Assembly: GCA_965222155.1 (NCBI GenBank)
Contig: CBDCTH010000012.1
Coordinates: 64,001-128,000 of the forward strand
DNA from: Gammaproteobacteria bacterium
GTDB taxonomy: Bacteria > Pseudomonadota > Gammaproteobacteria > Eutrophobiales > Eutrophobiaceae
Reading direction: 5' to 3'
Length of the DNA: 64,000 nt
A program made the translations under genes and the position numbers. Every line of letters starts with the position of its first letter. Position 1 is the stretch's first letter. The notes under the pieces were generated by a model that saw only the letters and a program-made list of their open reading frames with translations, had not been told where the DNA came from and ran no database searches. Positions 1,977-45,461 of this stretch are shown here, in pieces.

Positions 1977-3012
1977 CCGGCGGTGCGGTGAGCGATACCC
2001 CTGCCTCAGGCTCGCTGCAGCGCGGGCCGGCGCGTATCGTGCCTCTCATCAGCGACACCAGTCTGCCGGGAGCAGATTTGGACGCTCGAAGGGCACCCGC
2101 CGGACATATGTCAGGGAACGCCGCATATCAATAATCCAGCCAGCCGCAACCATAGTGTACCCAAGCGTGCTCACAGCAACCCATTACGAGAAATGCAGGC
2201 AGGGCGTTTCGCTTATCGCCTTCATATGGGTCGTGGCAGGCTGCTCAGTGTTGGAGTCGTCCGTAGCGCCAGGGGTTTGTCCGGATCCAGCGTGTGCGGA
2301 TTGGGAGTTTCTCCCGTTCTCGCACAAGGGGACCCCGCTGGTTGGCTTCCGCAAGCCCGGTGGCGCTGACTCAGGCCATCTGGTCGTTTACATCGAGGGC
2401 GATGGAAAGGGATGGCGAAACCGGTCCAGGCTGTCCGGAAACCCGACACCGGGAGACCCGATCGGGTTACGACTGGCGCTACAGGACTCAAGCCCCGGGT
2501 TGCTCTATCTGGCGCGCCCCTGCCAGTATGTCCAACCCGAACTGCTCGAACACTGCCAGCCGTCGCTCTGGTCAACTGGCCGTTATGCGGAGCATATCGT
2601 AGAGACGATGGATCGTGCTGTCAGCGCGGCAAAGCACGCTCAATCCGACCGGCTTACCCTGGTGGGATATTCCGGCGGTGGGGTGATCGCGGCGCTGCTG
2701 GCCTCGCGCCGGTCGGATGTGGAGCGGTTGATTACGGTCGCCGCCCCCCTGGACACAGATACCTGGGTTAAGCATCACCGCGTGTCACCCCTGACGGAAT
2801 CCTTGAACCCGCTTACAAGCGCGATCACGGGTTCGGTGCGTGAATTTCACTTCCATGGCGAGCGGGACCAGATAGTGCCTCCCGAAGTCATCAAGCCGTA
2901 CATCCGTCAGGCTGCCCGCGCCGGCGTCCGGTTCTTCACGCTGGCCGAGTATGACCATGGCTGCTGCTGGGTACGCGACTGGCCGGCATTGCTGGCCATG
3001 ACGGATGAGTGA
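1948..3012 (+). CDS. alpha/beta hydrolase, probable lipoprotein (true start probably about 2150-2210)
   Basis: VYIEGDG, GYSGGG nucleophile elbow, HGERDQIVP, HGCCW; lipobox-like VVAGC. Confidence 0.8.
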   Translation: MRTLYSANYNRRCGERYPCLRLAAARAGAYRASHQRHQSAGSRFGRSKGTRRTYVRERRISIIQPAATIVYPSVLTATHYEKCRQGVSLIAFIWVVAGCSVLESSVAPGVCPDPACADWEFLPFSHKGTPLVGFRKPGGADSGHLVVYIEGDGKGWRNRSRLSGNPTPGDPIGLRLALQDSSPGLLYLARPCQYVQPELLEHCQPSLWSTGRYAEHIVETMDRAVSAAKHAQSDRLTLVGYSGGGVIAALLASRRSDVERLITVAAPLDTDTWVKHHRVSPLTESLNPLTSAITGSVREFHFHGERDQIVPPEVIKPYIRQAARAGVRFFTLAEYDHGCCWVRDWPALLAMTDE

Positions 3013-3169
3013 GAAATGCGGACTGGTAATTCAATCTGTGACGATCATGCCTGCCCTGGTCAGCTGCTTTGTGGGCCGGACTGGGCTTGTTCAAATCTGA
3101 AGACGCTGGACGAGCATATCAGTCATATCACCTGCCTTTTATTGACTATCTAACACAGGAGAAAGAAAC

Positions 3170-5404
3170 ATGGCGACGACTATTTACGAAGATAAGGGGG
3201 ACGCAGCTGCCGGCTCAGAAGCCAGCTATTCAATGTCTGTCAGCGATATATCTTCGGCCTTTGAGTATCCCTTCACTGGTGTCTATGTGGGTGCTCATAG
3301 CACGCCAACTTTTGTCGACCTGGACAGCGACAGCGACCTGGATCTGATCATAGGCGCGGGTAACGGCAACCTGTACTACTACGAGAACACGGGTACGCGC
3401 AGCCAGCCGAACTTCACTGCACCCGCCGTTAGCGCCAATCCGCTGGGTGGTGTTAATGTGGATTCCGACAGCGCCCCGACCTTTGCTGATCTGGACGATG
3501 ATGGCGACCTGGACCTGATCGTAGGCGCGGGTAACGGCAACCTGTACTACTACGAGAACACGGGTACGCGCAGCCAGCCGAACTTCACTGCACTCGCCGG
3601 CACTGCCAATCCCCTGAGTGACGTCTCTGTAGGTTATGAAGACATCGTGCCAACCTTTGCTGACCTGGACGATGATGGTGACCTGGACCTGGTCATGGGT
3701 GAGTATTACGGCGGTCTGTACTACTATGAAAACATCGGTACGCGCAGCCAACCGGACTTCACACGTACCGATGTCATCAATCCTCTATATAGCATTTATG
3801 TGGCGGGAACACATCACGTTCCTGTCTTTGTCGACTTGGACGACGACGGTGACTTGGACTTGGTGGTGGGTAAGCATGATGGCGACTTGCTCTACTACGA
3901 GAACATGGGCACAAGCAGTCAGCCTGATTTCACAGAGCGTACCGGTGATGCTAATCCAATGAATGGCATTGATAAGGGTGATCATAGCACGCCAGCCTTT
4001 GCCGACTTGGATGACGATGGTGACTTGGACTTGGTCATGGGTGAGGGCGAATTTCCGGATGAGCTTCCGGATCCGATGGACGACAGGCTACTCTACTACG
4101 AGAATACCGGCACGCGCACCAAAGCAAGTTTTACTTTTATTCCCGCTAATACATCGCGCATTGATGGTACTGATGCTGATGATCACCTCATTGGTGACGA
4201 CATGGACAATGAGATATACGGGAAAGGAGGTAACGACATACTGCAGGGTAAGGGTGGTAATGACAAGCTAAATGGCGAAGCTGGGAACGATACCGCTTCC
4301 TACATCGACTCGAACGCCGGTGTGCAGGTCAATCTAGATGCGGGCGATGCTGCGGGAGGCAGCGCGGCAGGTGACACGTTAATCAGCGTTGAGAATCTCA
4401 CTGGGTCCAAGCACGCTGATACCCTGACCGGCGACAACAATAATAATACTCTCAAGGGTCTTGAGGGCGACGACACGCTGGATGGCGGTGCAGGCGACGA
4501 TACACTTGCCGGTGGCGCCGACGCTGATACGTTGGCAGGCGATGACGGCAACGACACACTGGATGGTGGTGCCGGCGACGATACGCTTATCGGTGGTGCC
4601 GGCAGCGACACGCTTATCGGTGGCGGGGGCAGCGACACCGTATCTTATGCTGGTTCGGACAAACCTGTGGCAGTCCTCCTGAGCTACGGTCACCTTGTTC
4701 AACAAGGGCATGCCCAGGGCGATACGTTGAGCGGTATCGAGAACCTCATGGGTTCCGAACACAATGACCTGCTGCTGGGTGATGGCAATGCCAACCGGCT
4801 TACAGGTGGTGACGGCGACGACGCGTTGAATGGCTATGGTGGTGACGATGAACTGGAAGGCGGCGGCGGCGCCGATGATATGGAAGGCGGTAGTGGGGGT
4901 AGTGATACCGTGTCCTATGCAGCCTCGGACGCGGGGGTAACGGTAGACCTTCAAACCCAGTCCGCCAGTGGTGGCCATGCTCAGGGAGACAGGATCTCCG
5001 GCTTTGAAAACGTCACCGGGTCTGACCACGCAGATACGCTGATTGGCTCCGACGGCGCGAACCGACTCAAGAGTGGTTACGGTGATGATACGCTGACCGG
5101 CGGCGCCGGCGAAGATGTTTTCATCTTCGCCTATAACATAGTCCTAGTCCTAGGCCCAGCCGGTTACTACGACGATTTAATTGTTGCTAATGGAAAAGAC
5201 ACGATCACTGACTTTGCCGATGGTGAGGACAGGATCGAGATCGAGCTTGGTGTGTTCGGAATTGAAGATTTCGACGACCTGCAAGAGAAGATCACACAGG
5301 ATGGAAACAACACGCTGATCACCTTCGATGCCGATAACGGGATTACCCTGGAGAATGTAGACATGGCTATCATTGGCGCCGACGACTTCATCTTTGTAGC
5401 CTGA
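3170..5404 (+). CDS. FG-GAP/VCBS-repeat protein with RTX Ca-binding repeats (type I secretion substrate-like)
   Basis: Five PTFADLDDDGDLDL...YYENTGT repeats; GGxGxDxL nonapeptides; C-terminal DDFIF; RBS CAGGAG upstream. Confidence 0.85.
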   Translation: MATTIYEDKGDAAAGSEASYSMSVSDISSAFEYPFTGVYVGAHSTPTFVDLDSDSDLDLIIGAGNGNLYYYENTGTRSQPNFTAPAVSANPLGGVNVDSDSAPTFADLDDDGDLDLIVGAGNGNLYYYENTGTRSQPNFTALAGTANPLSDVSVGYEDIVPTFADLDDDGDLDLVMGEYYGGLYYYENIGTRSQPDFTRTDVINPLYSIYVAGTHHVPVFVDLDDDGDLDLVVGKHDGDLLYYENMGTSSQPDFTERTGDANPMNGIDKGDHSTPAFADLDDDGDLDLVMGEGEFPDELPDPMDDRLLYYENTGTRTKASFTFIPANTSRIDGTDADDHLIGDDMDNEIYGKGGNDILQGKGGNDKLNGEAGNDTASYIDSNAGVQVNLDAGDAAGGSAAGDTLISVENLTGSKHADTLTGDNNNNTLKGLEGDDTLDGGAGDDTLAGGADADTLAGDDGNDTLDGGAGDDTLIGGAGSDTLIGGGGSDTVSYAGSDKPVAVLLSYGHLVQQGHAQGDTLSGIENLMGSEHNDLLLGDGNANRLTGGDGDDALNGYGGDDELEGGGGADDMEGGSGGSDTVSYAASDAGVTVDLQTQSASGGHAQGDRISGFENVTGSDHADTLIGSDGANRLKSGYGDDTLTGGAGEDVFIFAYNIVLVLGPAGYYDDLIVANGKDTITDFADGEDRIEIELGVFGIEDFDDLQEKITQDGNNTLITFDADNGITLENVDMAIIGADDFIFVA

Positions 5405-5494
5405 CCTGGCAATCTGCTGACCAGCCCCCAAACTCTCATGATCAGGGCTTTGCACACCCCGACGGCATGTAACTAAAACAACTAGGGGAGCAAC

Positions 5495-6083
5495 ATGACT
5501 GTTCTGAAAAAAGATAACGGCACTGCGGCGCCTACAGGTGCTCGTGGTCAGTACAAGATGGCCATTGACGAGGACTTGCGGGGCACGCTCAACAACACCA
5601 CTGGTGATAGGAGCAATCCTGTTGCTGACATTGATGGGGGTTATAGCAGCATCCCAACCTTTGCCGACCTGGACAGCGACGGTGACCTGGACCTGGTCGT
5701 GGGTGAGGTCGGATGCCGGGGTGACGGTGAATCTCAAAGACGGCACAGATGAATGAGGTCATGCTGAGGGTGATGTGATTGTTGATGTGTAGAGCGTAGT
5801 TGGTTCAGACTATGAGGATACCCTGACTAGCAACGACGGTGCTAACCGGCTGTACGGCGGTCCCGGCGCCGATACCGTTATTTTTGCGCCTGGGAACGGG
5901 GACGACCTCATCGGTGACTTTACCGATGGCGAGGACTTGATTGACCTCACTGGCTTCGACGATCTCGAAGCGTCGGGCGATGCAGAGGGGGTCACGCTCG
6001 ACCTGTCGGCCCAGGACGGGGGAACGATCCGGCTGGCAGACTTTGATATGGCTGACCTGGATGCGGCGGACTTTATTCTTTGA
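5495..6083 (+). pseudogene. Collapsed FG-GAP/RTX paralog
   Basis: One FG-GAP unit, then a frameshift into RTX-type sequence (DAGVTVNLKDG...GHAEGDVIVDV*SVVGSDYEDTL...DAADFIL*) with internal TGA and TAG stops. Confidence 0.75.
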
Positions 6084-6151
6084 CGGATTCTGAATTCTGG
6101 GGACAGGATATTTGGGGGAACTGCTGCTCCATCACGCCGGCAAAACAAACG

Positions 6152-6829
6152 CTAACGGGAGCTACCGGTCGGCTTGATTTCTTTCAGGAGTGAATTTGCT
6201 GCTACGGCAATAATATTACGGTCCATTGGATAATTTTCTTTCCCTGCGTGAATGATATACAGTCTTTTCAGGTGCAAATCATCCATTGCTATGCGCATTG
6301 ATTTAGTCACTTTTGGCGAGTCGGTGCGCTTGAATTCAACACCGGACCGCTGCCTGCCGTGAGTTATCATCAAATCGAGTTCTGCCCCTGAATGCGTTAC
6401 CCAAAAATAGCATTGATCCCACTCTGCCTTGGACTGCTGTACAACCTGTTCCAGTAGAAAACCTTCCCAACTCGCCCCGAGTTTGGGATGTGTATCCAGG
6501 TCATGAAAGGATTTTATACCGAGTTGAGCGTGCAGCAATCCACTATCCCTTATATACAGTTTAGGAGATTTTACTACCCGTTTACCGATATTTTCGGACC
6601 AGGGTTGCAGCAAACGCACTGCAAAAGTGGCGCTGAGAATGTCCAGGTATTTTCCTATGGTCGTATGGGATACGCCTTCAAGATCGAACCAATTTACGTT
6701 GTTTGAGCTTTGTCCCGCGAGCTGTCTTGCGAGGCTTGTTTTACCGACCTGCCGAGCGCCAAGTAAGGCGACAACCGGGTAATTTTTGCTCAGGCGATTT
6801 ATTGCAGATAGATGTGTGGCACGTAGTAT
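6152..6829 (-). pseudogene. AAA_14/DUF4143 ATPase with in-frame internal deletion and no clear start codon
   Basis: Frame upstream of the ORF reads ...LLGARQVGKTSLARQL...WFDLE, joined directly to GVSHTTIGKYLD...KSPKLYIRDSGL...ELDL...GVEFK; the Walker B region is missing. Confidence 0.75.
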
Positions 6830-16616: not shown

Positions 16617-16808
16617 TTATTGCCACACTGGGTGCTCCATCCAGTTTTCTGGTATTCCCATTGCCGCTCGCCATTTCCTGTCTGCTGCAATGGGTTTAAA
16701 CAGGTCGTTACATTGTTTTTTCCATTCATCGATACGATGTGAGGGGAGATTTCGTGTAGACTTCAACCACTGGGAATCCTCGTGACGCAGGCAAAAAAAA
16801 GCCGCCAA
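16617..16808 (-). pseudogene. Possible C-terminal remnant of an Abi-family (AbiD/F-like) protein
   Basis: Ends AMGIPENWMEHPVWQ, resembling the MGFPxxW C-terminus of Abi_2 proteins; no N-terminus. Confidence 0.35.
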
Positions 16809-17010
16809 GGTTGCGCATTGTTAAGAGGCGTGACGGCTATGTTAGACATATTATAGCTCCAGTAGATGGCAGATTCAAGAGAATTATGACTTCTTCCCGT
16901 AAAACTGATCTAGACCAAAAAATTCTGGCATTGTTGAGACTCACCTTAAGCAATGGGGCTATCGTGTAGCTCAATACCAAAACTGGCGACATATAGAGTG
17001 AATGGAAGTG

Positions 17011-34280: not shown

Positions 34281-34338
34281 AGCGATTATTCCTTGTCTGT
34301 GAAGCAAGGTTATCGGGCGTGTTTTGAAAGAGATTGAT

Positions 34339-37300
34339 ATGTCAGGACAACTATTCAAACAATATTTTTTAACGGACGGTATCAGGGAAACCAGGGAGTG
34401 GCAGGAATCGGTGAAGCAACCGGAGACGTATACCGGGTTCGCCAATGCCATCACCGCTCGCTTCAACAATTTCAGTCGCTTCAGTGAACCCAATGAAGCG
34501 GTTACGGAACAGGAACTCATTCGTCCGGTCCTGGAGATGCTGGGCTGGACCGACTACCTGCCGCAGCAGGGCACAGCGCGCAATGAGGACGTTCCCGATC
34601 ACCTTCTCTTTGCTGACGCGGACGCGAAGAAGCGGGCCAGTGCCCGCGGCAATTCGCAAGATCGTTATAAGGATGCGCTGCTGGTACAGGAAAGCAAGCG
34701 TATCGGCCGGTCTCTCGATAGCCGGGCAGATGACGAGCAGGCGCATGAGGGCACGCCCCAGGGGCAGATATTACGCTACCTGTTAACTGCTGAAATTGTG
34801 TCGGGGGGTCAGGTCCGTTGGGGCATTCTCACCAACGGCAGTGTCTGGCGACTTTACGACCAGCGCGCCAGACCGCGCGCCAGTGGCTTCTTCGAGACCG
34901 ACCTCAAGGCGATACTGGCTCAGGATGATGAAGACGGGCTGAGGATGTTCTTTCTGCTGTTTCACCGGGAAGCGTACCTGCTCCGGCAGGGCGCAACGGC
35001 TACCTTCCTGGAAGCCGCCCTCGCGCAGGGCCGGCGCTACGAAGAACAGGTGGCCCAGGACCTTTCAAGCGTCGTCTTTGATCGTGTCTTCCCCGGTCTC
35101 GTAAGGGCGCTTGCGGACGCTACCGGAAAAAGCCTGTCGCAGGTTCGCCCCGCCGCGCTGATCTTCCTGTACAGGTTGCTGTTCATCCTGTACGCCGAGG
35201 ACCGCGGGCTGTTGCCTGTCAACGACCTTCGCTATGATGATTACGGCCTGCGCAAGCGGGTGCGAGACGATATCGCGCAACGGAAAAAGCAGGGTGATAT
35301 CTTCTCCGACACGGCAGCCAACTACTACAACCGCTTGACCGAGCTTTTCAGGCTTATCGACAGGGGTGACGACTCCATCGGCTTACCTCCCTACAACGGC
35401 GGGCTGTTCGCGTCCGGGACTGCGCCGATTCTTGGCCGCGCGCGCCTGTCGGACGTGGTGGTCGCTGATATTATTTATGACCTGAGCCACACCGGAAGCG
35501 CGGATGAGCGTCGCTTTGTCAATTACCGCGACCTGTCGGTGCAGCAGATGGGTTCAATCTACGAGAGGCTGCTGGAGCGCGAACCGGTGCGCGCAGACGA
35601 CGGGAGCGTGTCGACCCGTCCCAATCCGTATGCGCGCAAGGACAGCGGCAGCTTCTACACGCCACAGGAGCTGGTTGACCTGATTGTGGAGCAGACGCTT
35701 AAACCGTTGGCTGAAGAGCGATTACAGGCGTTCGAGCACAGGTCGGAAGCGCTCAGGAGCGACCGTCGTCCAAAGGCCGAACGCTACGCCGAACTGGCCG
35801 ATCTGGACCCGTCCGAAGCGGTCTTGAATGTCAAAGTCCTGGACCCGGCGATGGGAAGCGGTCACTTCCTTGTCAGTGCGGTGGACTTCCTGTCTGACTA
35901 CATTGTTACCCTGGTCGAATATGTGCCGGCAGTGCCGGAATGGCTGGACGGCAAGTACACATCGCCACTCGTTGAGCGGATAACCGCAATCCGGGCCGAT
36001 ATTCTGAAACGGGCCGTCGAGTCCGGCTGGGTTATTGACGAGGCGCAGTTTACCGACCAGGCCATTATCCGGCGGATGGTGCTCAAACGCTGTATCTACG
36101 GCGTGGACAAGAACCCGCTGACCGTCGAGTTGGCGAAGATATCGCTGTGGCTGCACAGTTTCACCGTCGGCGCGCCGCTGTCGTTCCTGGACCACCACCT
36201 GCGCTGTGGCGATTCGCTTATCGGTCTCAGTGTGAAAAGCGCCACCGAGGAGTTGTACCGGCTTGGCAGCCTGTTTGTTTCCAGCGCTATTCAGGGCGCC
36301 GAGAACGCCGCCGCCGGTATGCAGCTCATCGAGGAGATGTCCGATGCTGACCTGTCGGAGGTGCGCGAGTCGGCAGACCTGTTCCGAGGCGTTGAAGCAA
36401 CAACAGTGAGCTTACGCGGCCTTCTTGACTTCGTCTGCGGCCTGCGCTGGCTGACGGCGGGAATGAACAAGTCGCAGCGCGCCGGTTTTGAGATTCCTCT
36501 CGTTGAGGCATTGGGAGCGAACCCCGATAACGCCTATAAGATGCTGTCCGGCGGCCCCGCCGCCGCGGCGGGTGATCAGGAAGAATCCTCTCCCTTCGGA
36601 GTGTTATGGAATCAAGCTGTGTCAATAGCCAGGCGCGAGGGCTTCCTGCATTGGCAGGTGGCCTTCCCCGGCGTCTAGCAGCGCTGGCAGGATCAGCGTC
36701 CTGAAGGCGGATTCGACGCCATAATTGGGAACCCTCCCTGGGAGCGCATCAAGCTGCAAGAAGTGGAGTGGTTCGCGACCCGCGCTCCGGAGCTGGCTCG
36801 CGCCCCGACCGCTGCCGCGCGTAAGGCCGGGATCAGGCAGCTTCGCGAACGGGGCGAGCCGTTGGCGCATGAGTTCGACGCGGCCAAGGCCCGTGCTGAT
36901 GACCTCGGTCAAATGGTTCGCACATCAGGTCACTACCCCCTGCTGGGCGGGGGTGATATCAACCTCTACTCACTGTTTGTCGAAAGGGCTATGGGGTTGG
37001 TCAAACCTGACGGTCTGGTGGGGTTGCTCACGCCGTCCGGCATCTACGCCGACAAGACTGCGGCGCGGTTCTTCAAGACTGTTTCGACAAGTGGACAAAT
37101 CGCCGGCTTGTTCGACTTCGAGAACCGCCGCCTCAGGTCCAACCAGCCACCATTTTTCCCGGACGTGGACTCGCGTTTCAAATTCTGCGCCCTGATATTC
37201 GGCGCTGACGAGCGACATTTTACAGAGACCCGGTGTGCTTTCTTCCTCAACGACACCGGCGCAATCAACGACCCGGAGCGCTGCTTCCCCTTATCACCTG

Positions 37301-38400
37301 AGGATTTCGCCCGGGTGAACCCCAATACCGGCACCGCGCCAATCTTCCGCCGCCGCGGCGACGCCGACATCACTCGCCGCATCTACGAGCGGCACCCGGT
37401 GCTCGTTGACCGTTCAGGCGATGAGCAGCGCCGCGCCTGGCCGGTACGCTACCAAACCATGTTTCACATGACCAACGACTCCCACCTGTTCCGTAGCGCG
37501 GCACAACTTGAAGCTGGAGGCTTCTATCCCGTTGAGGGCAATCGCTGGAAACGGGGAGAGGAACTGTACCTGCCGCTGTATGAGGGGAAGATGGTGCAGG
37601 CCTTTGACCACCGAGCCGCCAGCGTAGTGGTTAATCCCACAAATTTGAGCCGGCCCGCGCAGCCCATGATAACTACTTTGACACAACACCAAGATCCGGA
37701 CTGGCTACCCACCCCACAGTTTTGGGTTCCAGCATCGAAATGTGGTTGGCCGTCGGGATCAACCTGGGTTCTTGGCTTCAAGGAAATTACGGCGCCCACG
37801 AACGTCAGAACATTCATCTCGGCGCTTTTACCAACGGTTGGATTCGGGAACAAAGTACCAATTCTCAAACCAGAGACGATAAACCGCAATGAATGGTTAC
37901 TAGCCGCCAACTTCAACGCAATAATCTTCGACTTTGCCGCACGCCAGAAAATTCAAGGCCAGACCTTGAATCTGTTCATCGTTGAGCAGCTTCCTGTCAT
38001 AGCATCCGATGACTACGACCGGCAGTTCGGAGATATTACCGCCCGCGATCTCGTCCGCGACCACGTGCTTCGTCTCACCTATACGGCCCACGACATGGCG
38101 CCGTTTGCCCGCGACCTCGGCTATGACGGGCCGCCGTTCACTTGGGACGAAGAGGAGCGGCGTCACCTGCGCGCCCGCCTTGATGCGTTGTACTTCCACC
38201 TGTATGGGTTGTCGCGGCAGGATGCGAGTTACATACTGGATACCTTCCCTATCGTCCGCAAAGAAGATGAAGCAAAGTTTGGCTGCTACCGCACCCGTGA
38301 CCTTATCCTGGCATACATGAATGCCCTGGTGGCTGGTGATACAGAGACGATTGTAGCGGTACAGGGGAACCGAAGAAGCGCCTCACGGCGCCAAAGATAG
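34339..38400 (+). pseudogene. Type IIG (Eco57I-like) fused restriction-modification enzyme with one in-frame amber codon at 36676-36678
   Basis: PD...ESK nuclease motif, WGILTNG, YNGGLF, GSFYTP, VLDPAMGSGHFL; after the TAG the same frame continues QRWQDQRPEGGFDAIIGNPPW and into ORF 36763-38400. Confidence 0.88.
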
Positions 38401-38420
38401 TGAAAAAAACAGAAATTGTA

Positions 38421-38672
38421 TCAGGCAGCTCGCCTACCGGTAATAGCTTCACGCAGCCCTTCGAGCAAGCCTTCCAGTTTGCCCATCCTACCGGCCATAT
38501 CTTCACGGAACTTCGATTGTTCCTTGCCCTGCTCGTCAATGCGCCTGGCCAGGTCATCAATCCGCTTGTTCAAGTCGCTACGCAATCCACGTTGATTAAA
38601 GTGGATAAAGGCAGCTATAGCGATCACCGCGCTGATGATACCGATGATGGTTGTCCATATTTCCGGGGTCAT
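38421..38672 (-). CDS. small membrane-anchored coiled-coil hypothetical protein
   Basis: N-terminal TM helix then heptad-like sequence ending LEGLLEGLREAI. Confidence 0.6.
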   Translation of the reverse strand: MTPEIWTTIIGIISAVIAIAAFIHFNQRGLRSDLNKRIDDLARRIDEQGKEQSKFREDMAGRMGKLEGLLEGLREAITGRRAA

Positions 38673-38831
38673 GTCGTCAGTATAGCAGAATCCGCAGTAG
38701 CTTACGGATACACATAAAATCTAAACAGTTGCTCCCGCTAAATCGAGGTCAACACAGTGATTTTTGCCGGATTCGGGCAAGGGGGACAGATTTAAATGGG
38801 ACTTACTATACAATCTTACCCAAGGGTTTGG

Positions 38832-39248
38832 TTATTCAAAGAACAGGGGTCCCAATACTTTATGGCTTATCTCCCACATTTCGTGAGGTTGGTCTTCTAT
38901 ATAAATTTTGCATGAATGAGAATCCTTGTTCCAACGCGGATAGGTAAGCATTTCATCTTCATGTGCGCTAATTCTGATGGCATTGATTGATTTTTCAAAG
39001 TAAACAGATTTGATATCATTGCTGTCCTGATCGTCCTCAGGGAAACGGCGAACGCTGAACATAGGATAAATTCCTTCGCCATTTTGTTCCAATTGAAAAG
39101 CAAAACCGCGCCTGCGCTTGGCTGACAGTTTATTTGCTTCCTCCACATCGCGTTGCACTATTTGAAAGAGCGATTCGAACGTTAGATAAAGGTTGCACTT
39201 GGCTCGTTCGGCGACCTGGTTAGGGGGCAATGGCGTATTCTCAAACAT
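38832..39248 (-). CDS. hypothetical protein (IS1595 passenger)
   Basis: 138-aa ORF divergent from the transposase, ending just inside the left TIR; no motif recognised. Confidence 0.6.
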   Translation of the reverse strand: MFENTPLPPNQVAERAKCNLYLTFESLFQIVQRDVEEANKLSAKRRRGFAFQLEQNGEGIYPMFSVRRFPEDDQDSNDIKSVYFEKSINAIRISAHEDEMLTYPRWNKDSHSCKIYIEDQPHEMWEISHKVLGPLFFE

Positions 39249-39291
39249 CCATAATTATATTAGCAGCAAAGGAAATAATTACCAAAAAAGC

Positions 39292-39320
39292 TTGACTTTT
39301 GGGTTGTTTTTGGGTAAAAT
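39292..39320 (+). promoter_or_regulatory. sigma70-like promoter of the transposase
   Basis: TTGACT-N17-TAAAAT. Confidence 0.65.
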
Positions 39321-39348
39321 ACTCCCATATATTAATAGGTGCAACCAG

Positions 39349-40257
39349 ATGAAAAAGCAAAGAAATAAGTTATCAGTAGTCCAGATAATGAATATGTTTC
39401 CCGATGATGAAACTGCGGAGCAATGGTTTATAAATTGCCGCTGGCAACATGGGATAGATTGCCCGGCCTGTGGGTCAAAGCGAGTTTCGGAAAGAACGAC
39501 AGGCAAGCGGTCATGGCGTTGTAAGGATTGCCGTAAGGATTTTAGCACCAAGACCGGAACGTTAATGCAGGGCAGTAACCTGGGGTTCCGGGTGTGGGCG
39601 ATTGCTATTTACCTACTGACTACCAGCCTGAAGGGGATTGCCAGCACCAAGCTGGCGAGCGACTTGGGGATTACACAAAAGGTTGCCTGGCACCTGGCGA
39701 TGCGGATTCGGGAAACCTGCGGGGATAGGATGGCCCAGCTTCAGGGCGTTGTTGAGGTAGATGAAACGTATATTGGCGGCAAAAAAACTAATAAACATCA
39801 GAGCAAGCGTATTCCTGGCCGGGGGCCGTCCGGCAAGCAGGCGGTTATCGGCGCTAAGGAGAGAGGCGGCAACATCAGGGCAAAAAGCATTACCCGGCCA
39901 GACTTCTACAATCTCCGATCCTTCGTTAGTGAGGTTGTTGCTGAAGATGCCAATGTCATTACCGATGAGAACCGAGGGTATCAAGGTATTCCACAGGCGC
40001 ACCAGACAGTACACCATTCAGCTAAGGAATATGTCCGGGACCAAGCGCATACAAATGGTATTGAGTCCTTTTGGGCTTTATTAAAGCGGGGCTATTATAG
40101 CACTCACCATCACATGAGTTATAAGCATCTGGATCGGTACGTTAAGGAGTTCTCAGGCCGGGCCAATGACCGCCAGTCACACACTATTGAACAGATGTCG
40201 CACATGGCGCAGGCTATGAGAGGGAAACAATTGAGGTACAATGATCTGATTGCTTAG
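39349..40257 (+). CDS. IS1595-family transposase
   Basis: Zn ribbon CPACG...WRCKDC, VEVDETYIGG, ITDE..GY, HS..EYV, TNGIESFW..LKR, HL.RY..EF. Confidence 0.95.
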   Translation: MKKQRNKLSVVQIMNMFPDDETAEQWFINCRWQHGIDCPACGSKRVSERTTGKRSWRCKDCRKDFSTKTGTLMQGSNLGFRVWAIAIYLLTTSLKGIASTKLASDLGITQKVAWHLAMRIRETCGDRMAQLQGVVEVDETYIGGKKTNKHQSKRIPGRGPSGKQAVIGAKERGGNIRAKSITRPDFYNLRSFVSEVVAEDANVITDENRGYQGIPQAHQTVHHSAKEYVRDQAHTNGIESFWALLKRGYYSTHHHMSYKHLDRYVKEFSGRANDRQSHTIEQMSHMAQAMRGKQLRYNDLIA

Positions 40258-40337
40258 CAGCAACTCCCAAGCACGATCAGTAAGTGGTTAAAAAAGCTAT
40301 ATTGGCCTGTCCGCGACACCCGCCTGGGTTAAAATAA

Positions 40338-40372
40338 AAAACCCGTGAACTCAACTGAGTTGCACGGGTTTT
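40338..40372. terminator. Hairpin with A/T tails between the transposase and the tRNA
   Basis: AAAACCCGTG-AACTCA-AC-TGAGTT-G-CACGGGTTTT. Confidence 0.6.
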
Positions 40373-40380
40373 AATTTATC

Positions 40381-40465
40381 GCCCGGGTGGCGAAATTGGT
40401 AAACGCAGGAGTCTCGCACACTCCCAGTCCTCGTGGCTTTGCGGGTTCGAATCCCGCTCCGGGCA
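40381..40465 (+). tRNA. tRNA with Leu-type body and CGC (Ala) anticodon; CCA not encoded
   Basis: Acceptor GCCCGGG/TCCGGGC plus A73; D arm GCG-AAATTGGTAAA-CGC; anticodon arm GGAGT-CTCGCAC-ACTCC; long variable arm; T arm GCGGG-TTCGAAT-CCCGC. Confidence 0.88.
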
Positions 40466-40516
40466 CTCCTTTCTAGTGCACTTAGAAAGTCATTATAGTT
40501 ATTGTAATTCGGTATA

Positions 40517-40663
40517 TCAAACCGTGTTGTTTTTCTTCAAGTATTGCCAGTCTTTCTTCGGCGGGGCCTGCATGATGGCAACGGCAACCCCTTCAGGCCT
40601 GGTATCAACCGGCGGGATCACATTCTTAACAGGCCTCCCGCGCTGTTTAGTTTTCTTGGTCAT
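40517..40663 (-). CDS. 48-aa basic peptide with AT-hook-like RGRP motif (IS1595 passenger)
   Basis: MTKKTKQRGRPVKNVIPPVDTRPEGVAVAIMQAPPKKDWQYLKKNNTV*; starts 9 nt after the hicA stop. Confidence 0.6.
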   Translation of the reverse strand: MTKKTKQRGRPVKNVIPPVDTRPEGVAVAIMQAPPKKDWQYLKKNNTV

Positions 40664-40672
40664 AACCAATTT

Positions 40673-40879
40673 TTATAATTCATGCTCTTCAATGCCAGTG
40701 ATATTCATTATTTTTTTCTGTAGTCCTACTTTTAAAGATTTATTGCCATGAACCGGTATTGAAATGGGATAAATCTCACCCTCCTTTACATAAATATGAT
40801 GGCTACCTTTAATGCGCTTAAGCTGCCACCCCTTCTTCCGGATAAGATAACACAACGTCTTTCCGCCTACTGTCTTCAA
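40673..40879 (-). CDS. hicA: HicA-family toxin
   Basis: GW...RIKGSHHIY...IPVHGNKSLK.GL. Confidence 0.9.
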   Translation of the reverse strand: MKTVGGKTLCYLIRKKGWQLKRIKGSHHIYVKEGEIYPISIPVHGNKSLKVGLQKKIMNITGIEEHEL

Positions 40880-41078
40880 AAGTAATCTCCCGTAAATCCC
40901 GTTCCAGGATAGTCTTTACATTATCAGCAAGAACAGATAAGCAACCATCAACAGCGTCCTTTAAATTAACAATCAACTCGTTAATTGTGTCTCCTTGTGT
41001 TACACAGCCAGGAATAGACGTAACTTCTGCCCAATAACCTCCTTCATCTGCAATATGAACGATAATCTCTGTTTTCAT
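40818..41078 (-). CDS. hicB: HicB-family antitoxin (short form)
   Basis: EGGYWAEV.SIPGCVTQGDT..EL..NLKDAV. Confidence 0.88.
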   Translation of the reverse strand: MKTEIIVHIADEGGYWAEVTSIPGCVTQGDTINELIVNLKDAVDGCLSVLADNVKTILERDLREITFEDSRRKDVVLSYPEEGVAA

Positions 41079-41258
41079 AACAGTTATCCTAATAACCATT
41101 TAGTGCGTACCCTAAAGGTACGTATACAATATATTATATATTTCAAACAGAAAAAATCAATTTTTTTGTTGACATCAATCTACCGCTAATCACGGGGTCA
41201 TGGGTAAGATTGTATATAAGTCCTATTTAAATCTGTCCCCCAGGAGGCCGAAGACAGC

Positions 41259-41371
41259 GGGGACAGATTTAAATCTGTCCCCTAGGAGGCGCGGGACATG
41301 TTTCCCTGGGATGGAGGGCGTCTCGCCCTCCACGAGGGCAGGATGCCCTCGATCCCGGGAGTTAGCGGGAG
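41259..41371 (+). repeat. Composite repeat (24-bp palindrome plus REP-like double hairpin); inverted copy at 56111-56223
   Basis: GGGGACAGATTTAAATCTGTCCCC...GAGGGCGTCTCGCCCTCCACGAGGGCAGGATGCCCT...CCCGGGAGTTAGCGGGA. Confidence 0.85.
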
Positions 41372-41381
41372 CACCTGAAAT

Positions 41382-44300
41382 CTAAAATTCGCGATCTTCC
41401 TGGATTATTGCCGCTTCGATCCGACCACTCAGGTAATCAATATATTTTCCCAACCATAGCTGGATTCCGGGAGATGGGATTTCTGACATCCAGCGCCTGG
41501 CGGCATCCCGTTTTTTTGATAGGTATATGCTATCAGGTCCCGTCCATCCGCCCATATAAAAATGCACGCAAAGGCTGCCGGCGATGCGATCATCATCACA
41601 GAATTCTTCAATAAATAAGCGTGTCAATTGACCACCGGCGTTTTCATCAAGGGTTTTCGGTAATACTTCTTGAATTAACCGGAGTCGGTTCTCTATGTCT
41701 GAGTTAATCCAGTCGATAATATCTTCTGCTGGCATGTAGTTAATGGCGCTGTGTTTCGGGTTATCTTCAAATCCAATATCCCCTAACCAGCTGATTAACT
41801 CATAATGATTCTTTGACTCAGATATCAGGAGTTCTGATACGATTTCCCATGCTTCATGGGGGTGGTCCTTTACAATATCAGAGGCGATGTTGTAAACAGT
41901 ATTTCGATAATGAAAAATTCTCCCTATATCGCTCATAATTTCCTTGAACAGATCCATATTCCGGTCAGGATGTTTCTTAAGAAAGCCTTTTGCTATTTTA
42001 TCCCAGTAAAACCCATACATCTGATCATAATCATCGCTGGAGGGCACTGCAGTCAGTACTTTAAAAATCAGATATTCAGGAAAATCGTCCGTGCAGTCCT
42101 CATGAAAATAATAATTGTAGACATACTGCGTACAAATATTGATTGAAGTGCCGTCAGCATGGTGCAGGAGTGCGGTAATGACCTGATGAAGTAGATCACT
42201 TGATAAACTGGTTGTATTCTGTGTAATAATAAATCCACCAAAAGCCACTGGTTCTAATTTCCCGTCCTCAAACAGGGCCAGCATAGCTCGCATGATTGAT
42301 TCGGTAAGACTGGAATCCCGTATGCAATCAATTGCGATTTTGCGAGTTGTTTCATTATATAATAAGCGATGTAGCAGATTTTCCCAGCGCACGGCACTAT
42401 GTGTGCGAACGCCGGCAAGATAGCTTCCCAGGAATTGACCATTGCTATTGGGACTGGCGGATTCGATATAACTCATTATTGGTTCATCAAATTTCGCTTC
42501 GGCTAACTTCCCGCATTCCTTTCCCAACTCCGGCACTCGATATCCGGATGCCTTGACCAGTCTTGGTATATGCTCAGAAAATACGGTAAGGTCCTTCATA
42601 TATTCTTCAGCTAAATCTTGTACTCGTTTGCCGGGTAGTTGTGCTTCCTTAAGTTTTTCCCCACGGGATATATGATCTTCTTCCCAGTTGATATACAGGA
42701 CATAGCGGCAGGTTCTTTCCCATAGTGAGGTGCCGGTTAATACGCTATCCAGTTGTCGGATTCTGGCAAGTGTTTTTTTATCAAGGGGAGCGCTATTTCG
42801 GTGGAGTTGCCGGATAACAAATTGAATCAAAGGGCGACGATTTATTTCTTTGTCGTCAGCAAGCTCAAACAGGATGTCCATTACTTCACCCACCATCGCT
42901 TTGTTATGCACAAACCCACTGGCGGCGCCAACGAATATCTCAGCAACCCGATTCCGATCATCTGCATCAAACCCTTTCATTTCAGCGCGTAGAAATTGTA
43001 ATACCTGGCGCCAATAATCGAATAACTCACCGTATGTCTTGGGGCGCCAGAATTCGATGGCCGGTTTTAGTCCCTGGTACTCAGCGCCAATCATCCGATA
43101 ACCTCCATGCGTCTTTAGCCATTCTTTGCACATTTCCAATCCAAGTGAACGACGACTGGCATCGTCACTCATGACCAGGTCTCGTAAGATTGAAAAGCGC
43201 TTGGACGGTGGCGCCTGTGTCGGCGCCCACCCCGGCCGGACCTGGAATAAACTGAGTAGTAGCTCCTTTGAGTTATTGGAATAGCCAGCATTTTCTGCCA
43301 GTGCCATGGGAATTAGTACAGACACCGCACGGGCAAACAAGTCATCCCATACCGCAATTTTTTCCAAGGCCCATACAATATCCTGGCAGCCGGTATTCCA
43401 GGCATACAGTTCTTCCTGTGACCATGTTTTAATCGTCCTTTCCAATAGGGCCACTGTTGCCCTCGGGTCAGCCTCAGACAGATAGTTCAGGAACCGTAAA
43501 CCGACTTCCGACTTTAAGAAACTCTGATCAGAGAATGGTCCGGTAGTTGATAATATATTTTTGACAACCTTTTTTGCTTGTGGCGCTTCTTGGGCGTAGA
43601 TAAACAATTCTAAAAACCATCGTTTCATACTCTTGGGAACCAGTCCCAGGAAATGCTGAAATTGAAATCCGTGACCATGATTCTTCCAAAATTGTACCCA
43701 TAGGTGTACATGTAACATTTTTGGCACAATGAACAAGGTGTGACGTCCTTGCAGTATGCGTTTGTCTCGATAGTACTGCACAATGACTTGAAATCGGCCC
43801 CAGGTAATCATTGGGTCAACTTGTTTAACGAGGTCGGAAATAAATTCAGCCTCAGCATCCACCGGTACTTCAAACCCAAATCGCTGAAATAATGCAATAT
43901 GACGCAGGACGATTCGATGTTGCGCCGCTTCGTTGCTTGCCATCTCTTTGTGCCCGATAATATATCGATCCCATACGTCAACATCGGCAGGTGCTTTCAG
44001 TAAGTCATCGGGATTACTTTTCAGATTTTCACCGAGCAGGTGGGCAACGCGCGGAGACCCACCGCACCACTTTGCCCAATTACTTAAATCCACCTGTTGT
44101 TGGAGATAGCTGAACAGGATATTTTTGATTTGTTCTTCTGGAAGTTGCGGACAGTGATATATCCGCATGGCGCTGTCGTGGGTATTATCCGGGCCATGAT
44201 CAATCGTAATCAAATTAATGCTGCTACGACCCTTCAACGCTGACCAGATCGATACCCTGTCACGATTATCACAATCATCAATCACTAATGTGACGGAATA

Positions 44301-45461
44301 GGTTCTGTCGGGTTTGAGCAATTCATTGAATAATTTACTCGTTTGAAAATCTTCACCTGCCGACACATAGATGACCGATGGCCCTATTTCATCGACGTCT
44401 AATGCTTCAAGCGCCAGGCGGGTTTTTCCGATACCCGGTTCACCGATGATGCGGATATGTTGAACGGTATTTTCCTGCAGGGCCGTTCTTATCTCCTTGA
44501 TCAATTCTGCCTGTTCATTGCCGAGTTCCAGTACGCCCTGCATCTGGGCGTTATTTCGCCAGCCCTTAATGGGCAGAAAGCTGCCGTCATCCAGACCGAC
44601 CAAGTCACAGCAAAGAGAAGGGTATTTGTACAATTCACCGGCTATCTGTCCTTGTCCGTACACGCGTACCTTTGGATTGGTATAGCCACATTCCTTGAAC
44701 AAATCAGCCAGGTGAGTGGCTGCCTGCGAGTGTTGAATTGGAAGCAAATCATGGCCGAACGTGACGAGAACGTAAGTCCCGTCCTGTTCGAGGCAAGTCC
44801 TTACCTCACTCCCTAAGCGTTGCTTCGATGGAAAGGCACCTGATTTCCCAAGTAATTCTTTCTTCAAGGCGCTGGGTTGCCAGGGTTTAAAAGCCGGGCC
44901 TGTCTTGATTTGATAATACGTACTACCTTTTGCCAACAGAAAACCAGAGGTCGGTGAATTTTCTACCTTTGCGTCAATACCGCTGTCTGGTGCGTTGATA
45001 TTTGAAGACAGCACCACGTCTTTTGGACTAAGCCCGTTGGCGATGGCTTCACATCGTAACAGCCTGAGGAACAGGTTGGGGCCTTCCTGCGAGCCCAATT
45101 GGCCCAGCTGGCTCGGGGTGGGGGCAAATGTCGAATGTACAGGGGCAAGATTTAGATTTATCGAGGCTGATTCTGGATGAAGTTGCACAGCTTGTACATG
45201 TATGCTTACACGCAGACCGGCTTTTTTGGCTAGTGATACAAGGGCATCAAGACTGAATTTATCAATTCTGTCTTTGAGTAAATCGTTCAAACGAGGCTGA
45301 GTAATGCCTAGTGCCTTAGCCTTATCAGCCTGTGTCCCGCCGATATGTTTTTGTATGTGTTCCCGCAAGGCTGCCATCAGTTTTGTCCGTCCCGGCATGT
45401 CAGCGGATGATTCACGACGGGTTCTTGTGGCAGGTTGCTGTTTCTTTACAGTTTTTGTCAT
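41382..45461 (-). CDS. XRE helix-turn-helix + PD-(D/E)XK-like + P-loop NTPase + helical domain protein (putative defence)
   Basis: TQADKAKALGITQPRLNDLL...KFSLDALV; DSGIDA...YQIK; GEPGIGKT; LVIDDC. Confidence 0.75.
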   Translation of the reverse strand: MTKTVKKQQPATRTRRESSADMPGRTKLMAALREHIQKHIGGTQADKAKALGITQPRLNDLLKDRIDKFSLDALVSLAKKAGLRVSIHVQAVQLHPESASINLNLAPVHSTFAPTPSQLGQLGSQEGPNLFLRLLRCEAIANGLSPKDVVLSSNINAPDSGIDAKVENSPTSGFLLAKGSTYYQIKTGPAFKPWQPSALKKELLGKSGAFPSKQRLGSEVRTCLEQDGTYVLVTFGHDLLPIQHSQAATHLADLFKECGYTNPKVRVYGQGQIAGELYKYPSLCCDLVGLDDGSFLPIKGWRNNAQMQGVLELGNEQAELIKEIRTALQENTVQHIRIIGEPGIGKTRLALEALDVDEIGPSVIYVSAGEDFQTSKLFNELLKPDRTYSVTLVIDDCDNRDRVSIWSALKGRSSINLITIDHGPDNTHDSAMRIYHCPQLPEEQIKNILFSYLQQQVDLSNWAKWCGGSPRVAHLLGENLKSNPDDLLKAPADVDVWDRYIIGHKEMASNEAAQHRIVLRHIALFQRFGFEVPVDAEAEFISDLVKQVDPMITWGRFQVIVQYYRDKRILQGRHTLFIVPKMLHVHLWVQFWKNHGHGFQFQHFLGLVPKSMKRWFLELFIYAQEAPQAKKVVKNILSTTGPFSDQSFLKSEVGLRFLNYLSEADPRATVALLERTIKTWSQEELYAWNTGCQDIVWALEKIAVWDDLFARAVSVLIPMALAENAGYSNNSKELLLSLFQVRPGWAPTQAPPSKRFSILRDLVMSDDASRRSLGLEMCKEWLKTHGGYRMIGAEYQGLKPAIEFWRPKTYGELFDYWRQVLQFLRAEMKGFDADDRNRVAEIFVGAASGFVHNKAMVGEVMDILFELADDKEINRRPLIQFVIRQLHRNSAPLDKKTLARIRQLDSVLTGTSLWERTCRYVLYINWEEDHISRGEKLKEAQLPGKRVQDLAEEYMKDLTVFSEHIPRLVKASGYRVPELGKECGKLAEAKFDEPIMSYIESASPNSNGQFLGSYLAGVRTHSAVRWENLLHRLLYNETTRKIAIDCIRDSSLTESIMRAMLALFEDGKLEPVAFGGFIITQNTTSLSSDLLHQVITALLHHADGTSINICTQYVYNYYFHEDCTDDFPEYLIFKVLTAVPSSDDYDQMYGFYWDKIAKGFLKKHPDRNMDLFKEIMSDIGRIFHYRNTVYNIASDIVKDHPHEAWEIVSELLISESKNHYELISWLGDIGFEDNPKHSAINYMPAEDIIDWINSDIENRLRLIQEVLPKTLDENAGGQLTRLFIEEFCDDDRIAGSLCVHFYMGGWTGPDSIYLSKKRDAARRWMSEIPSPGIQLWLGKYIDYLSGRIEAAIIQEDREF

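Follow-up and report, generated by a model that had tools for sequence, protein, structure and literature searches.

A tRNA gene with a leucine-type body and an alanine anticodon, carried by an IS1595-family element of a gammaproteobacterium

In a gammaproteobacterium of the family Eutrophobiaceae, a structurally intact class II transfer RNA (tRNA) gene joins a tRNA-Leu body to the anticodon CGC, which reads the alanine codon GCG. It lies in a stretch of 64,000 nucleotides (assembly GCA_965222155.1, contig CBDCTH010000012.1, positions 64,001 to 128,000), referred to here as the window, within an insertion sequence (IS) of the IS1595 family that also carries a hicA toxin gene and a hicB-like gene. 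The best reading of the gene, and still a tentative one, is that it specifies a weakly or conditionally expressed, leucine-accepting decoder of GCG. It would be one instance of a wider and apparently undescribed population: leucine-bodied tRNAs of canonical geometry whose anticodons are not those of leucine and belong mostly to the alanine box.

Results

A tRNA-Leu body with the anticodon CGC

ARAGORN called a single tRNA in the 64-kb window, at 40381-40466 on the + strand with anticodon cgc, and the Rfam tRNA model RF00005 matched 40381-40465 over its full length (model positions 1-71 of 71; 54.7 bits against a gathering score of 29; E = 5.2e-09). The gene can be summarised as follows.

40381-40465, + strand: class II 7/5 tRNA with a Leu-type body; anticodon CGC at 40415-40417, A73 at 40465, no encoded CCA

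Read from the sequence, the acceptor stem GCCCGGG/TCCGGGC forms seven pairs, including C3-G70 and G7-U66. U8 and G9 are present, and the D arm, GCGAAATTGGTAAACGC, holds A14, A15, G18, G19 and A20a. A 5-bp anticodon stem, GGAGT/ACTCC, closes a loop of C32 U33 C34 G35 C36 A37 C38. The variable region, CAGTCCTCGTGGCTTT, is 16 nt long and ends in U, and the T arm, GCGGG-TTCGAAT-CCCGC, has a 5-bp stem. After A73 (40465) the bases are CTCC, not CCA. Standard pairs occupy 22 of 22 stem positions outside the variable arm, and the tertiary positions are intact. ARAGORN, Rfam and the sequence itself therefore agree with the original prediction, made from the sequence alone, of an intact 7/5 cloverleaf with a long variable arm, a leucine-type D arm, A73, a C3-G70 pair and a canonical anticodon loop. 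A minimum-free-energy fold of the tRNA alone gave no cloverleaf; such folds commonly fail to show the cloverleaf of tRNAs, and the result was not counted against the call.

The long variable arm and the 7/5 acceptor and T stems are those of bacterial tRNA-Leu. The gene also has the leucine identity set of the E. coli type (A73, A15 with U48, G18 G19 and A20a), although the rules of the host enzyme may differ. For the leucyl-tRNA synthetase (LeuRS) of E. coli, parts of one review give A73, A15-U48, G18G19, A20a and the D/T-loop pairs as essential, and the anticodon and the variable-arm sequence as not essential (PMC9976931). The departure from tRNA-Leu is in the anticodon: leucine anticodons are NAG or YAA, always with A35, and CGC is at least two changes away from any of them. 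The anticodon is of the alanine type (NGC), but the body is class II, whereas the host tRNA-Ala genes measure 76 nt, so the gene is not a class I tRNA-Ala; moreover, C3-G70 stands where the G3:U70 pair of tRNA-Ala would be expected. The dependence of alanyl-tRNA synthetase (AlaRS) on G3:U70 is stated in a part of the literature on allo-tRNAs (PMC5389517). Set against the rules in those parts of PMC9976931, the bases sustain the earlier claim that the leucine identity set is present and G3:U70 absent. Because the LeuRS bases are all there, G3:U70 is missing and no synthetase gene lies nearby, a leucine acceptor is expected; by known identity rules, we infer that this acceptor would pair with GCG.

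With anticodons masked, the nearest of the host's 45 other tRNAs were tRNA-Leu(taa) at 73.8% and tRNA-Leu(caa) at 67.9%. The four host leucine tRNAs have G37 with CAG and GAG and A37 with UAA and CAA; the window tRNA has A37. Among the 46 host tRNAs found, those for alanine are only tgc and ggc, with no ordinary tRNA-Ala(CGC). ARAGORN found leucine tRNAs with taa, caa, cag and gag; Leu(tag) was not among the 46. An assembly slip in the anticodon, raised earlier as a way in which the prediction could fail, is not indicated, since a contig from public run X1 spans 38781-41241 with 0 differences; X1 may be the source of the assembly, which makes this weak independent support.

Leucine-type bodies with foreign anticodons in other bacteria

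One genome per species (185,579 species) was searched with a pattern that joins a Leu-type D arm to a downstream Y-U-CGC-A at the appropriate spacing. The pattern returned 68 stretches, and its reversed control gave 0 matches in every genome search where it was run. According to record titles, from which the taxon counts are taken, 49 of the 68 are labelled Gemmatimonadota, Gemmatimonadales or Longimicrobiales, with several per genome; the other 19 come from Pseudomonadales/Gammaproteobacteria, Alphaproteobacteria, Rhodobacteraceae/Paracoccaceae, Planctomycetales, two cyanobacteria (one an isolate genome), Burkholderiales and Chloroflexota. The main lineages with leucine-bodied tRNAs of this kind are Gemmatimonadota, Alpha- and Gammaproteobacteria, Cyanobacteria and Planctomycetes. 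ARAGORN confirmed 53 of the 68; of the 15 that it missed, 11 are intact with a variable arm of 26-32 nt and four are truncated. The Rfam tRNA model matched 18 of 20 submitted loci at 45-61 bits, leaving L011 and L069 without a match. Truncated leucine-bodied CGC copies are found at L014, L020, L025, L040, L239 and L244.

From genomes and metagenomes we assembled 60 unique CGC tRNAs, the window's included, admitting those in which six or more of the 7 acceptor pairs form and the T loop can be recognised, with no selection on the anticodon stem. Anticodon stems in this set are paired at 289 of 300 positions (96%), with 5-6 standard pair types at each position. A73 is present in 59 of 60 and A37 in 59 of 60, while G3:U70 occurs in 0 of 60 and no other G:U position is common to the copies. 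Judged by sequence conservation, this is the signature of RNAs kept as tRNAs and not of decaying copies. Sixty intact, unique sequences with heavy compensatory change in the anticodon stem also speak for the earlier argument that simple decay is unlikely.

To sample anticodons, position 35 was set to not-A, which excludes all leucine anticodons. In 401 evenly drawn Gemmatimonadota genomes there were 32 such matches in 26 genomes: CGC 13, GCG 7, TGG 5, GGC 2, and one each of AGC, CGG, GCC, GGT, TTC and CTC; three of the genomes with CGC matches had previously been found through CGC. Alanine-box anticodons (CGC, GGC, AGC) make up 16 of the 32. Among 81 metagenome matches listed, CGC and TGG tie for first place among sense anticodons with nine each, followed by GTT (6) and GTG (5), mostly on Asn- and His-type bodies; readers of stop codons were TTA (4), CTA (3) and TCA (2), and many false 'TGA' calls in this sample were due to group I introns. 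Over all samples, Leu-type bodies also occur with Gly, Pro, Arg, Val, Asp, Glu and Thr anticodons. Leucine bodies therefore bear many foreign anticodons, those of the alanine box most often, and CGC leads despite being at least two changes from any leucine anticodon. In 300 other genomes of the host's class, three had any non-A35 leucine-bodied tRNA and none had one with CGC.

Two further groups appeared in the metagenome sample. In loci L227, L234, L299, L233 and L246, an Asn-type acceptor end (UCC...G73) and anticodon GTT go with a long variable arm and a D arm resembling that of leucine tRNAs; L243, L281, L290, L247, L300 and L256 hold leucine-bodied readers of stop codons (TTA, CTA, TCA).

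The genomic settings of these genes vary. Gemmatimonadota copies sit in a repeated intergenic module that adjoins Ser/Thr kinase genes. Across loci L012-L077, about 80 nt upstream of the tRNA are conserved, as is TTGACTCGGC on its 3' side, with TAnAnT about 17 nt later. Neighbours in 20 Gemmatimonadota loci encode Hanks-type Ser/Thr kinases with tetratricopeptide-repeat (TPR) or beta-propeller tails; at L069, for example, the tRNA (3353-3440) lies between kinase open reading frames (ORFs) at 74-3202 (-) and 3626-6481 (-). Loci L029 and L030 have an additional leucine-bodied tRNA with anticodon CAC (Val) about 500 bp away. Proteobacterial and cyanobacterial copies with long arms sit among housekeeping genes, often with an encoded CCA and a hairpin just upstream. 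Neighbours outside the Gemmatimonadota include ComEA-like, GreA, KilA-N, ABC transporter, Clp and SDR genes, and genes for secreted proteins in the alphaproteobacterial genome G741. A conserved synthetase or partner gene was considered and rejected: no gene is common to the neighbourhoods of leucine-bodied CGC tRNAs across lineages.

In genome G741 the ordinary tRNA set is complete and includes a 76-nt tRNA-Ala(cgc). Beyond that set there are six Leu-type tRNAs of about 98 nt with variable arms of about 29 nt and an encoded CCA, four with CGC and two with GCC. Their record positions at locus L408 (G741:C1:1513000-1523000) are 1515297, 1515503, 1520307, 1520513, 1520720 and 1520927. They form tandem arrays of two and four, with a TGnTATAAT box ahead of each copy; their bodies are identical, and nearly all differences fall in the anticodon loop and the loop of the variable arm. 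The arrays alternate with secreted Gly/Thr/Ala/Ser-rich proteins of at least 709, 1454 and at least 628 amino acids that have no Pfam match.

The tRNA gene is cargo of an IS1595-family element

The element spans 38798-41224 (2,427 bp). Its features other than the tRNA, and those of its insertion site, are listed below.

38781-38789, no strand: left half (GGGGGACAG) of the host palindromic repeat that was the insertion target, from sequence reading and repeat count
38790-38797, no strand: left 8-bp target-site duplication, ATTTAAAT, identical to the 8-mer at 41225-41232
38798-38822, + strand: left terminal inverted repeat, GGGACTTACTATACAATCTTACCCA, 25 nt; the right arm has one substitution and one base fewer
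38832-39248, - strand: 138-amino-acid ORF without a family match, from the ORF list
39292-39320, + strand: promoter-like TTGACT-17-TAAAAT before the transposase start; 10 of 12 consensus positions, a consensus match only
39343-40257, + strand: IS1595-family transposase, 304 amino acids from the ATG at 39343, from Pfam and NCBIfam profiles
40338-40372, no strand: strong hairpin, preceded by an A run and followed by a T run, resembling a bidirectional intrinsic terminator, from folding against shuffles
40469-40489, + strand: weak hairpin directly 3' of the tRNA; -5.9 kcal/mol, z -2.52, 4 of 200 shuffles as good
40492-40520, - strand: promoter-like TTGATA-17-TATAAT, directed antisense through the tRNA towards the strong hairpin; 11 of 12 consensus positions, a consensus match only
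40673-40879, - strand: hicA toxin gene, 68 amino acids; Pfam HicA_toxin, 2.7e-15, 56.7 bits
40818-41099, - strand: hicB-like antitoxin gene, 93 amino acids; Pfam HicB_lk_antitox, 1.5e-05, 25.5 bits, below the 27-bit cut-off
41201-41224, - strand: right terminal inverted repeat, 24 nt, from the inverted-repeat search and sequence reading
41225-41232, no strand: right 8-bp target-site duplication, ATTTAAAT, from sequence reading
41233-41241, no strand: right half (CTGTCCCCC) of the split host palindrome, from sequence reading and repeat count

The transposase has the DDE_Tnp_IS1595 catalytic domain (Pfam PF12762, 1.8e-37) behind an N-terminal zinc ribbon (PF12760, 7.5e-09) and matches the NCBIfam model NF033547, transpos_IS1595, at 3.3e-50 (170.9 bits against a cut-off of 75). 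Transposase and tRNA are each single-copy in the host genome. A repeat search returned inverted arms of 42 nt at 38781-38822 and 41200-41241, of which the outer 16-17 nt are host palindrome plus duplication. The order is half a palindrome, ATTTAAAT, the IS with its inverted repeats, ATTTAAAT again, and the other half of the palindrome. The intact repeat, GGGGACAGATTTAAATCTGTCCCC, is a perfect 24-nt palindrome of REP-like character, present in 97 copies in the 4.55-Mb genome, among them one in the window at 41259-41282. The 2,427-bp unit is thus inserted as one into the centre of one host palindrome with an 8-bp duplication, and the intact duplication indicates that the tRNA moved as cargo of the IS. 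An 8-bp duplication is typical of the IS1595 family, some members of which carry passengers. Transposase profiles, inverted repeats and a duplication around the whole unit thus place the tRNA inside an IS1595 element, as had been proposed, and the neighbouring hicBA genes of the original prediction are there as hicA and a hicB-like gene of the same element.

PADLOC and NCBIfam returned nothing for hicA or the hicB-like gene, which has a promoter-like site ahead of it at 41160-41133 (-). The 138-amino-acid ORF found no match in Pfam, NCBIfam or PADLOC; public run X5 holds a diverged copy of it. No synthetase domain was detected with Pfam, NCBIfam or PADLOC in the ORFs of 34324-45461. On contig C4 of the host, a lone right end of a related IS abuts another half palindrome (C4:276920-276959).

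A defence island surrounds the insertion, with a type IIG restriction-modification (RM)/DrmMI-like gene pair on one side and a PD-Lambda-4_A-like gene on the other. The pair consists of adjacent ORFs of 784 and 545 amino acids (34324-38400) that match type IIG restriction-methyltransferase/DrmMI models, perhaps as two parts of a single split gene; beyond the IS, a 1359-amino-acid protein with HTH_37 and ATPase domains (41382-45461) matches PD-Lambda-4_A at 4.2e-30. An Rfam abiF RNA motif occurs elsewhere in the window, at 16800-16837 (-), with 40.2 bits against a gathering score of 37.

Among the other host tRNAs, a second class II gene is also mismatched (C4:126382-126470, - strand; locus L376:4383-4471). 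Its body is close to host tRNA-Ser(tga) and its anticodon is GAT (Ile); it has G73 and an encoded CCA, its first two acceptor pairs are C-C mismatches, and its Rfam score is 45.2 bits. The gene is flanked on one side by a MazF/PemK toxin gene and on the other by an AbiEi gene with a fragment of AbiEii. Both odd host tRNAs thus adjoin toxin-antitoxin genes, as reported for allo-tRNAs in part of PMC5389517. Contigs C7 and C8 repeat tRNAs of contig C10 (Thr cgt, Gln ctg), consistent with the 7.28% contamination/duplication figure for the assembly.

Relation to known mismatched tRNAs

Class II tRNAs whose anticodon contradicts their identity are already a known kind, represented by the nev-tRNAs of nematodes and the allo-tRNAs of bacteria. 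The original prediction had named allo-tRNAs and the Streptomyces tRNA-Pro with a Thr anticodon as precedents but not the closest one, the nev-tRNAs. Like the window tRNA, nev-tRNAs are class II molecules derived from tRNA-Leu, with leucine identity elements and an anticodon belonging to neither Leu nor Ser. Parts of one report describe their charging in vitro with leucine only and the decoding of GGG as leucine in vitro (PMC3333845). They differ in being eukaryotic and restricted to nematodes, in having the anticodons CCC and UAU (Gly, Ile), which tend to match rare codons, and in not being reported on mobile elements. The window tRNA, for its part, is bacterial (to judge by the bacterial tRNA set, the IS and the toxin-antitoxin genes), is IS cargo, would read a common codon and is known from sequence alone.

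Allo-tRNAs share with it a bacterial origin, class II form, a non-cognate anticodon and proximity to toxin-antitoxin or transposon genes (parts of PMC5389517 and PMC7609411). They differ in their 8/4 or 9/3 geometry and their Ser or Ala identity, as given in part of PMC5389517, whereas the window tRNA has 7/5 geometry, a Leu-type D arm and A73. In tRNAProX with its synthetase ProRSx, from Streptomyces and relatives, identity and anticodon also disagree, and encoded mistranslation has been proposed; unlike the window element, which has no synthetase, that system has a proline body of class I and its own synthetase gene (parts of PMC10404621 and PMC11415595). The bacterial cases in part of a 2024 review are tRNAProX, selC-like tRNA-Cys, tRNA-Sec with a Cys anticodon and the allo-tRNAs (PMC11415595). 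Full-text searches of the literature gave us no description of bacterial 7/5 leucine-bodied tRNAs with alanine or other foreign sense anticodons; the supplements of PMC5389517 and PMC8450103 may list such genes. With other passenger-bearing IS of the IS1595 family, the element has in common the DDE_Tnp_IS1595 domain with its zinc ribbon, short inverted repeats and the 8-bp duplication; it differs in counting a tRNA among its passengers.

Expression, retention and codon use

A number of observations weigh against a tRNA that places leucine at GCG codons, beginning with its expression. From the stop codon of the transposase gene to the tRNA, a consensus scan of the + strand found nothing like a sigma-70 promoter. 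Over 38700-41350 the scan returned seven sites against 4.8 +/- 2.5 expected, all of them consensus matches only, and the best is the TTGATA-17-TATAAT at 40520-40492, antisense to the tRNA. The hairpin at 40338-40372 ends 11 nt before the tRNA; on the + strand it folds with -20.8 kcal/mol (z -7.26) and has a T run, and on the - strand it folds with -20.3 kcal/mol (z -7.23) and is followed by a longer T run, with 0 of 200 shuffles as good on either strand. Being terminator-like, it should make read-through from the transposase gene weak or limited. The tRNA lacks an encoded CCA, compared with 44 of 46 host tRNAs that have one; the second host gene without it is Gly(ccc), of 71 nt, at C12:471667-471737. 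The addition of CCA is possible through the host's two genes of the PolyA_pol family (PF01743).

Related elements do not keep the tRNA. A 2,066-nt contig of run X5 fuses the 3' end of the transposase gene (to 40233) to an inverted hicAB segment reaching the right end, with no tRNA. In an 827-nt contig of run X17, positions 40370-40426 are present with 11 differences and five letters replace 40427-40513, which leaves only a 5' tRNA remnant; the contig runs on through hicAB with 30 differences in 596 nt. Both copies belong to other organisms, and X17 is an RNA library that may contain DNA. Runs X3 and X5 cover the stretch only in part, which carries no weight as a sign of absence. A related transposase occurs at E <= 1e-20 in 42 of 300 other genomes of the host's phylum, and none of the 29 related-transposase loci fetched (27-51% identity) has a long-arm tRNA, one ordinary tRNA-Thr being present there. 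Against 40 relatives of the host, the DNA of the element gave hicAB-like and weak transposase matches and ordinary leucine tRNAs at 71-78%, and nothing more; none of seven loci taken from this search held a long-arm tRNA. A distant-mode search of the element against plasmids gave no match. The tRNA is therefore not a fixed part of this IS.

The codon itself is a common one, GCG making up 28% of host alanine codons (26.6 per 1000 codons), so that efficient insertion of leucine would be very damaging. In the Clp ATPase of the alphaproteobacterial carrier L062, GCG aligned with alanine 31 times and with leucine never, and it is the main alanine codon of that gene (59 of 87). Reassignment of GCG to leucine was accordingly rejected for the L062 Clp gene, the one informative gene; four others were too small or too diverged. 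Within the element, the transposase gene has nine GCG codons, and hicA, hicB and orf138 have 0 among 13 alanine codons, but these genes are AT-rich.

Close relatives of the tRNA were not found. Its best match, at 78% identity, is a Gemmatimonadales CGC tRNA that shares the acceptor and T arm, and an ordinary viral tRNA-Leu(UAA) follows at 77%; the two values do not tell descent from the CGC population apart from an independent origin. Searched with the tRNA, phages gave no match and plasmids one unannotated match at 77.5%. The window-specific anticodon arm, with the anticodon left free, was found 0 times in viral contigs, and the Leu-type D arm with CGC once, at L078, where the acceptor stem is unpaired. 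The D arm GCGAAAYTGGTAAACGC was also tried as a marker of the CGC type and rejected, as 80 viral loci with it include TAA 42, TAG 11, CAA 11 and CGC 0. Finally, parts of one study report that no nev-tRNA mistranslation was detected in the C. elegans proteome (PMC4300185); as an analogy, the nematode precedent would cut both ways.

We argue that the tRNA is at best weakly expressed in this genome and is dispensable for the IS, because it has no predicted promoter, follows a terminator-like hairpin, lacks CCA, is lost from related IS copies and would exact a cost by placing leucine at GCG.

Discussion

How a mismatched tRNA might act, and what else it might be

If the gene is a decoder of GCG that accepts leucine, its transcript would be trimmed by RNase P and 3' nucleases and CCA would be added by one of the host's two PolyA_pol-family nucleotidyltransferases. 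The host LeuRS would then charge it with leucine, since the bacterial enzyme recognises its substrates by A73 and the D/T-loop core instead of the anticodon, and AlaRS needs the absent G3:U70. On the ribosome, the charged tRNA would place leucine at GCG codons. Its expression would probably be low or conditional: either transcription reads through the hairpin that follows the transposase gene, or an antisense transcript keeps the tRNA down. Occasional Ala-to-Leu missense would result, as a stress, toxic or diversifying cargo, and not a recoding of GCG. What favours a working, LeuRS-charged tRNA is that the fold is intact, the loop canonical and the identity set present, and that a population under selection exists elsewhere.

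It is possible, if rather doubtful, that the RNA is tRNA-shaped without decoding anything and serves as a processing or stability signal (an RNase P/Z site), as a decoy or substrate for tRNA-directed toxins or defence nucleases, or as the partner of an antisense RNA. The hairpin directly 5' of the tRNA fits such a role, the more so as gammaproteobacterial and cyanobacterial leucine-bodied CGC copies have one too, several without a T run, and so does the direction of the best promoter-like match, which points antisense through the tRNA towards a hairpin that is about as strong on the - strand and has its longer T run there. The promoter matches are, however, consensus matches only (7 against an expected 4.8 +/- 2.5). 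A setting among toxins and defence genes is also in keeping with it: the element carries hicA and sits in a defence island, the second mismatched host tRNA (Ser body, GAT) lies between MazF/PemK and AbiEi/truncated AbiEii, and allo-tRNAs near toxin-antitoxin systems were largely inactive in E. coli translation according to part of PMC5389517; yet no partner protein is conserved beside these tRNAs across lineages. GCG still aligns with alanine where such tRNAs are chromosomal. What a non-decoding RNA has no evident need for is a 7-nt loop with Y32, U33 and A37, kept in 59-60 of 60 copies, or for A73 and a canonical T loop, and the CCA that several lineages encode after A73 points to aminoacylation. 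A neutral passenger is unlikely; in that case the IS would have picked up a tRNA-Leu gene or a copy of some mismatched tRNA, which would have fallen out of use and be intact only through recent capture. Its single copy in the genome, the missing promoter and CCA, its loss or truncation in related IS copies, its absence from the 29 transposase loci and the truncated leucine-bodied CGC tRNAs known elsewhere would all suit a passenger. Against this stand the 22 standard stem pairs and intact tertiary positions in a tRNA whose anticodon is nonetheless at least two changes from leucine, and an A37 shared with 59 of 60 other CGC copies. An unconstrained copy should moreover show damage, as the X17 remnant does: it is more diverged (11 of 57 positions) than the adjacent hicAB (30 of 596).

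An alanine tRNA of unusual shape, charged with alanine by a route that does without G3:U70, seems very improbable. The host lacks an ordinary tRNA-Ala(CGC) among its 46 tRNAs found, alanine-box anticodons account for 16 of 32 on Leu-type bodies in the Gemmatimonadota sample, and GCG stays alanine in the L062 Clp gene, all of which would agree with it. But G3:U70 is found in 0 of 60 copies without any other shared G:U position to replace it, the same bodies carry Gly, Pro, Arg, Val, Asp, Glu and Thr anticodons, and no synthetase gene lies beside the tRNA, either in the window or at the loci examined. In G741, the ordinary 76-nt tRNA-Ala(cgc) means that the four leucine-bodied CGC copies are not needed to read GCG. 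A more elaborate version of the leucine-accepting decoder is quite unlikely as a whole: the tRNA would be an RNA toxin that accepts leucine and reads a very common alanine codon, normally silenced by the upstream terminator and downstream antisense transcription and carried by the IS with hicBA. It would be the mobile tip of a widespread, undescribed class of missense tRNAs, arranged in some genomes as tandem arrays with promoters and used for regulated mistranslation, of the whole proteome or of neighbouring genes, in defence, addiction or the diversification of surface proteins.

Meaning for bacterial decoding

Changes of the genetic code and deliberate mistranslation both draw on natural tRNAs in which body and anticodon do not match. 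Only a few are known from bacteria, with either odd geometry (allo-tRNAs) or a synthetase of their own (tRNAProX). Here, a leucine body of ordinary shape with an alanine anticodon sits on a mobile element, and this combination turns up in five or more bacterial phyla, where its structure is clearly under selection. Should these tRNAs be charged with leucine, then bacteria put up with leucine at one of their commonest codons or make use of it; if they are not, some mechanism keeps a tRNA-like molecule out of translation or charges it differently. Leucine-bodied mismatched tRNAs could also serve as scaffolds for code engineering.

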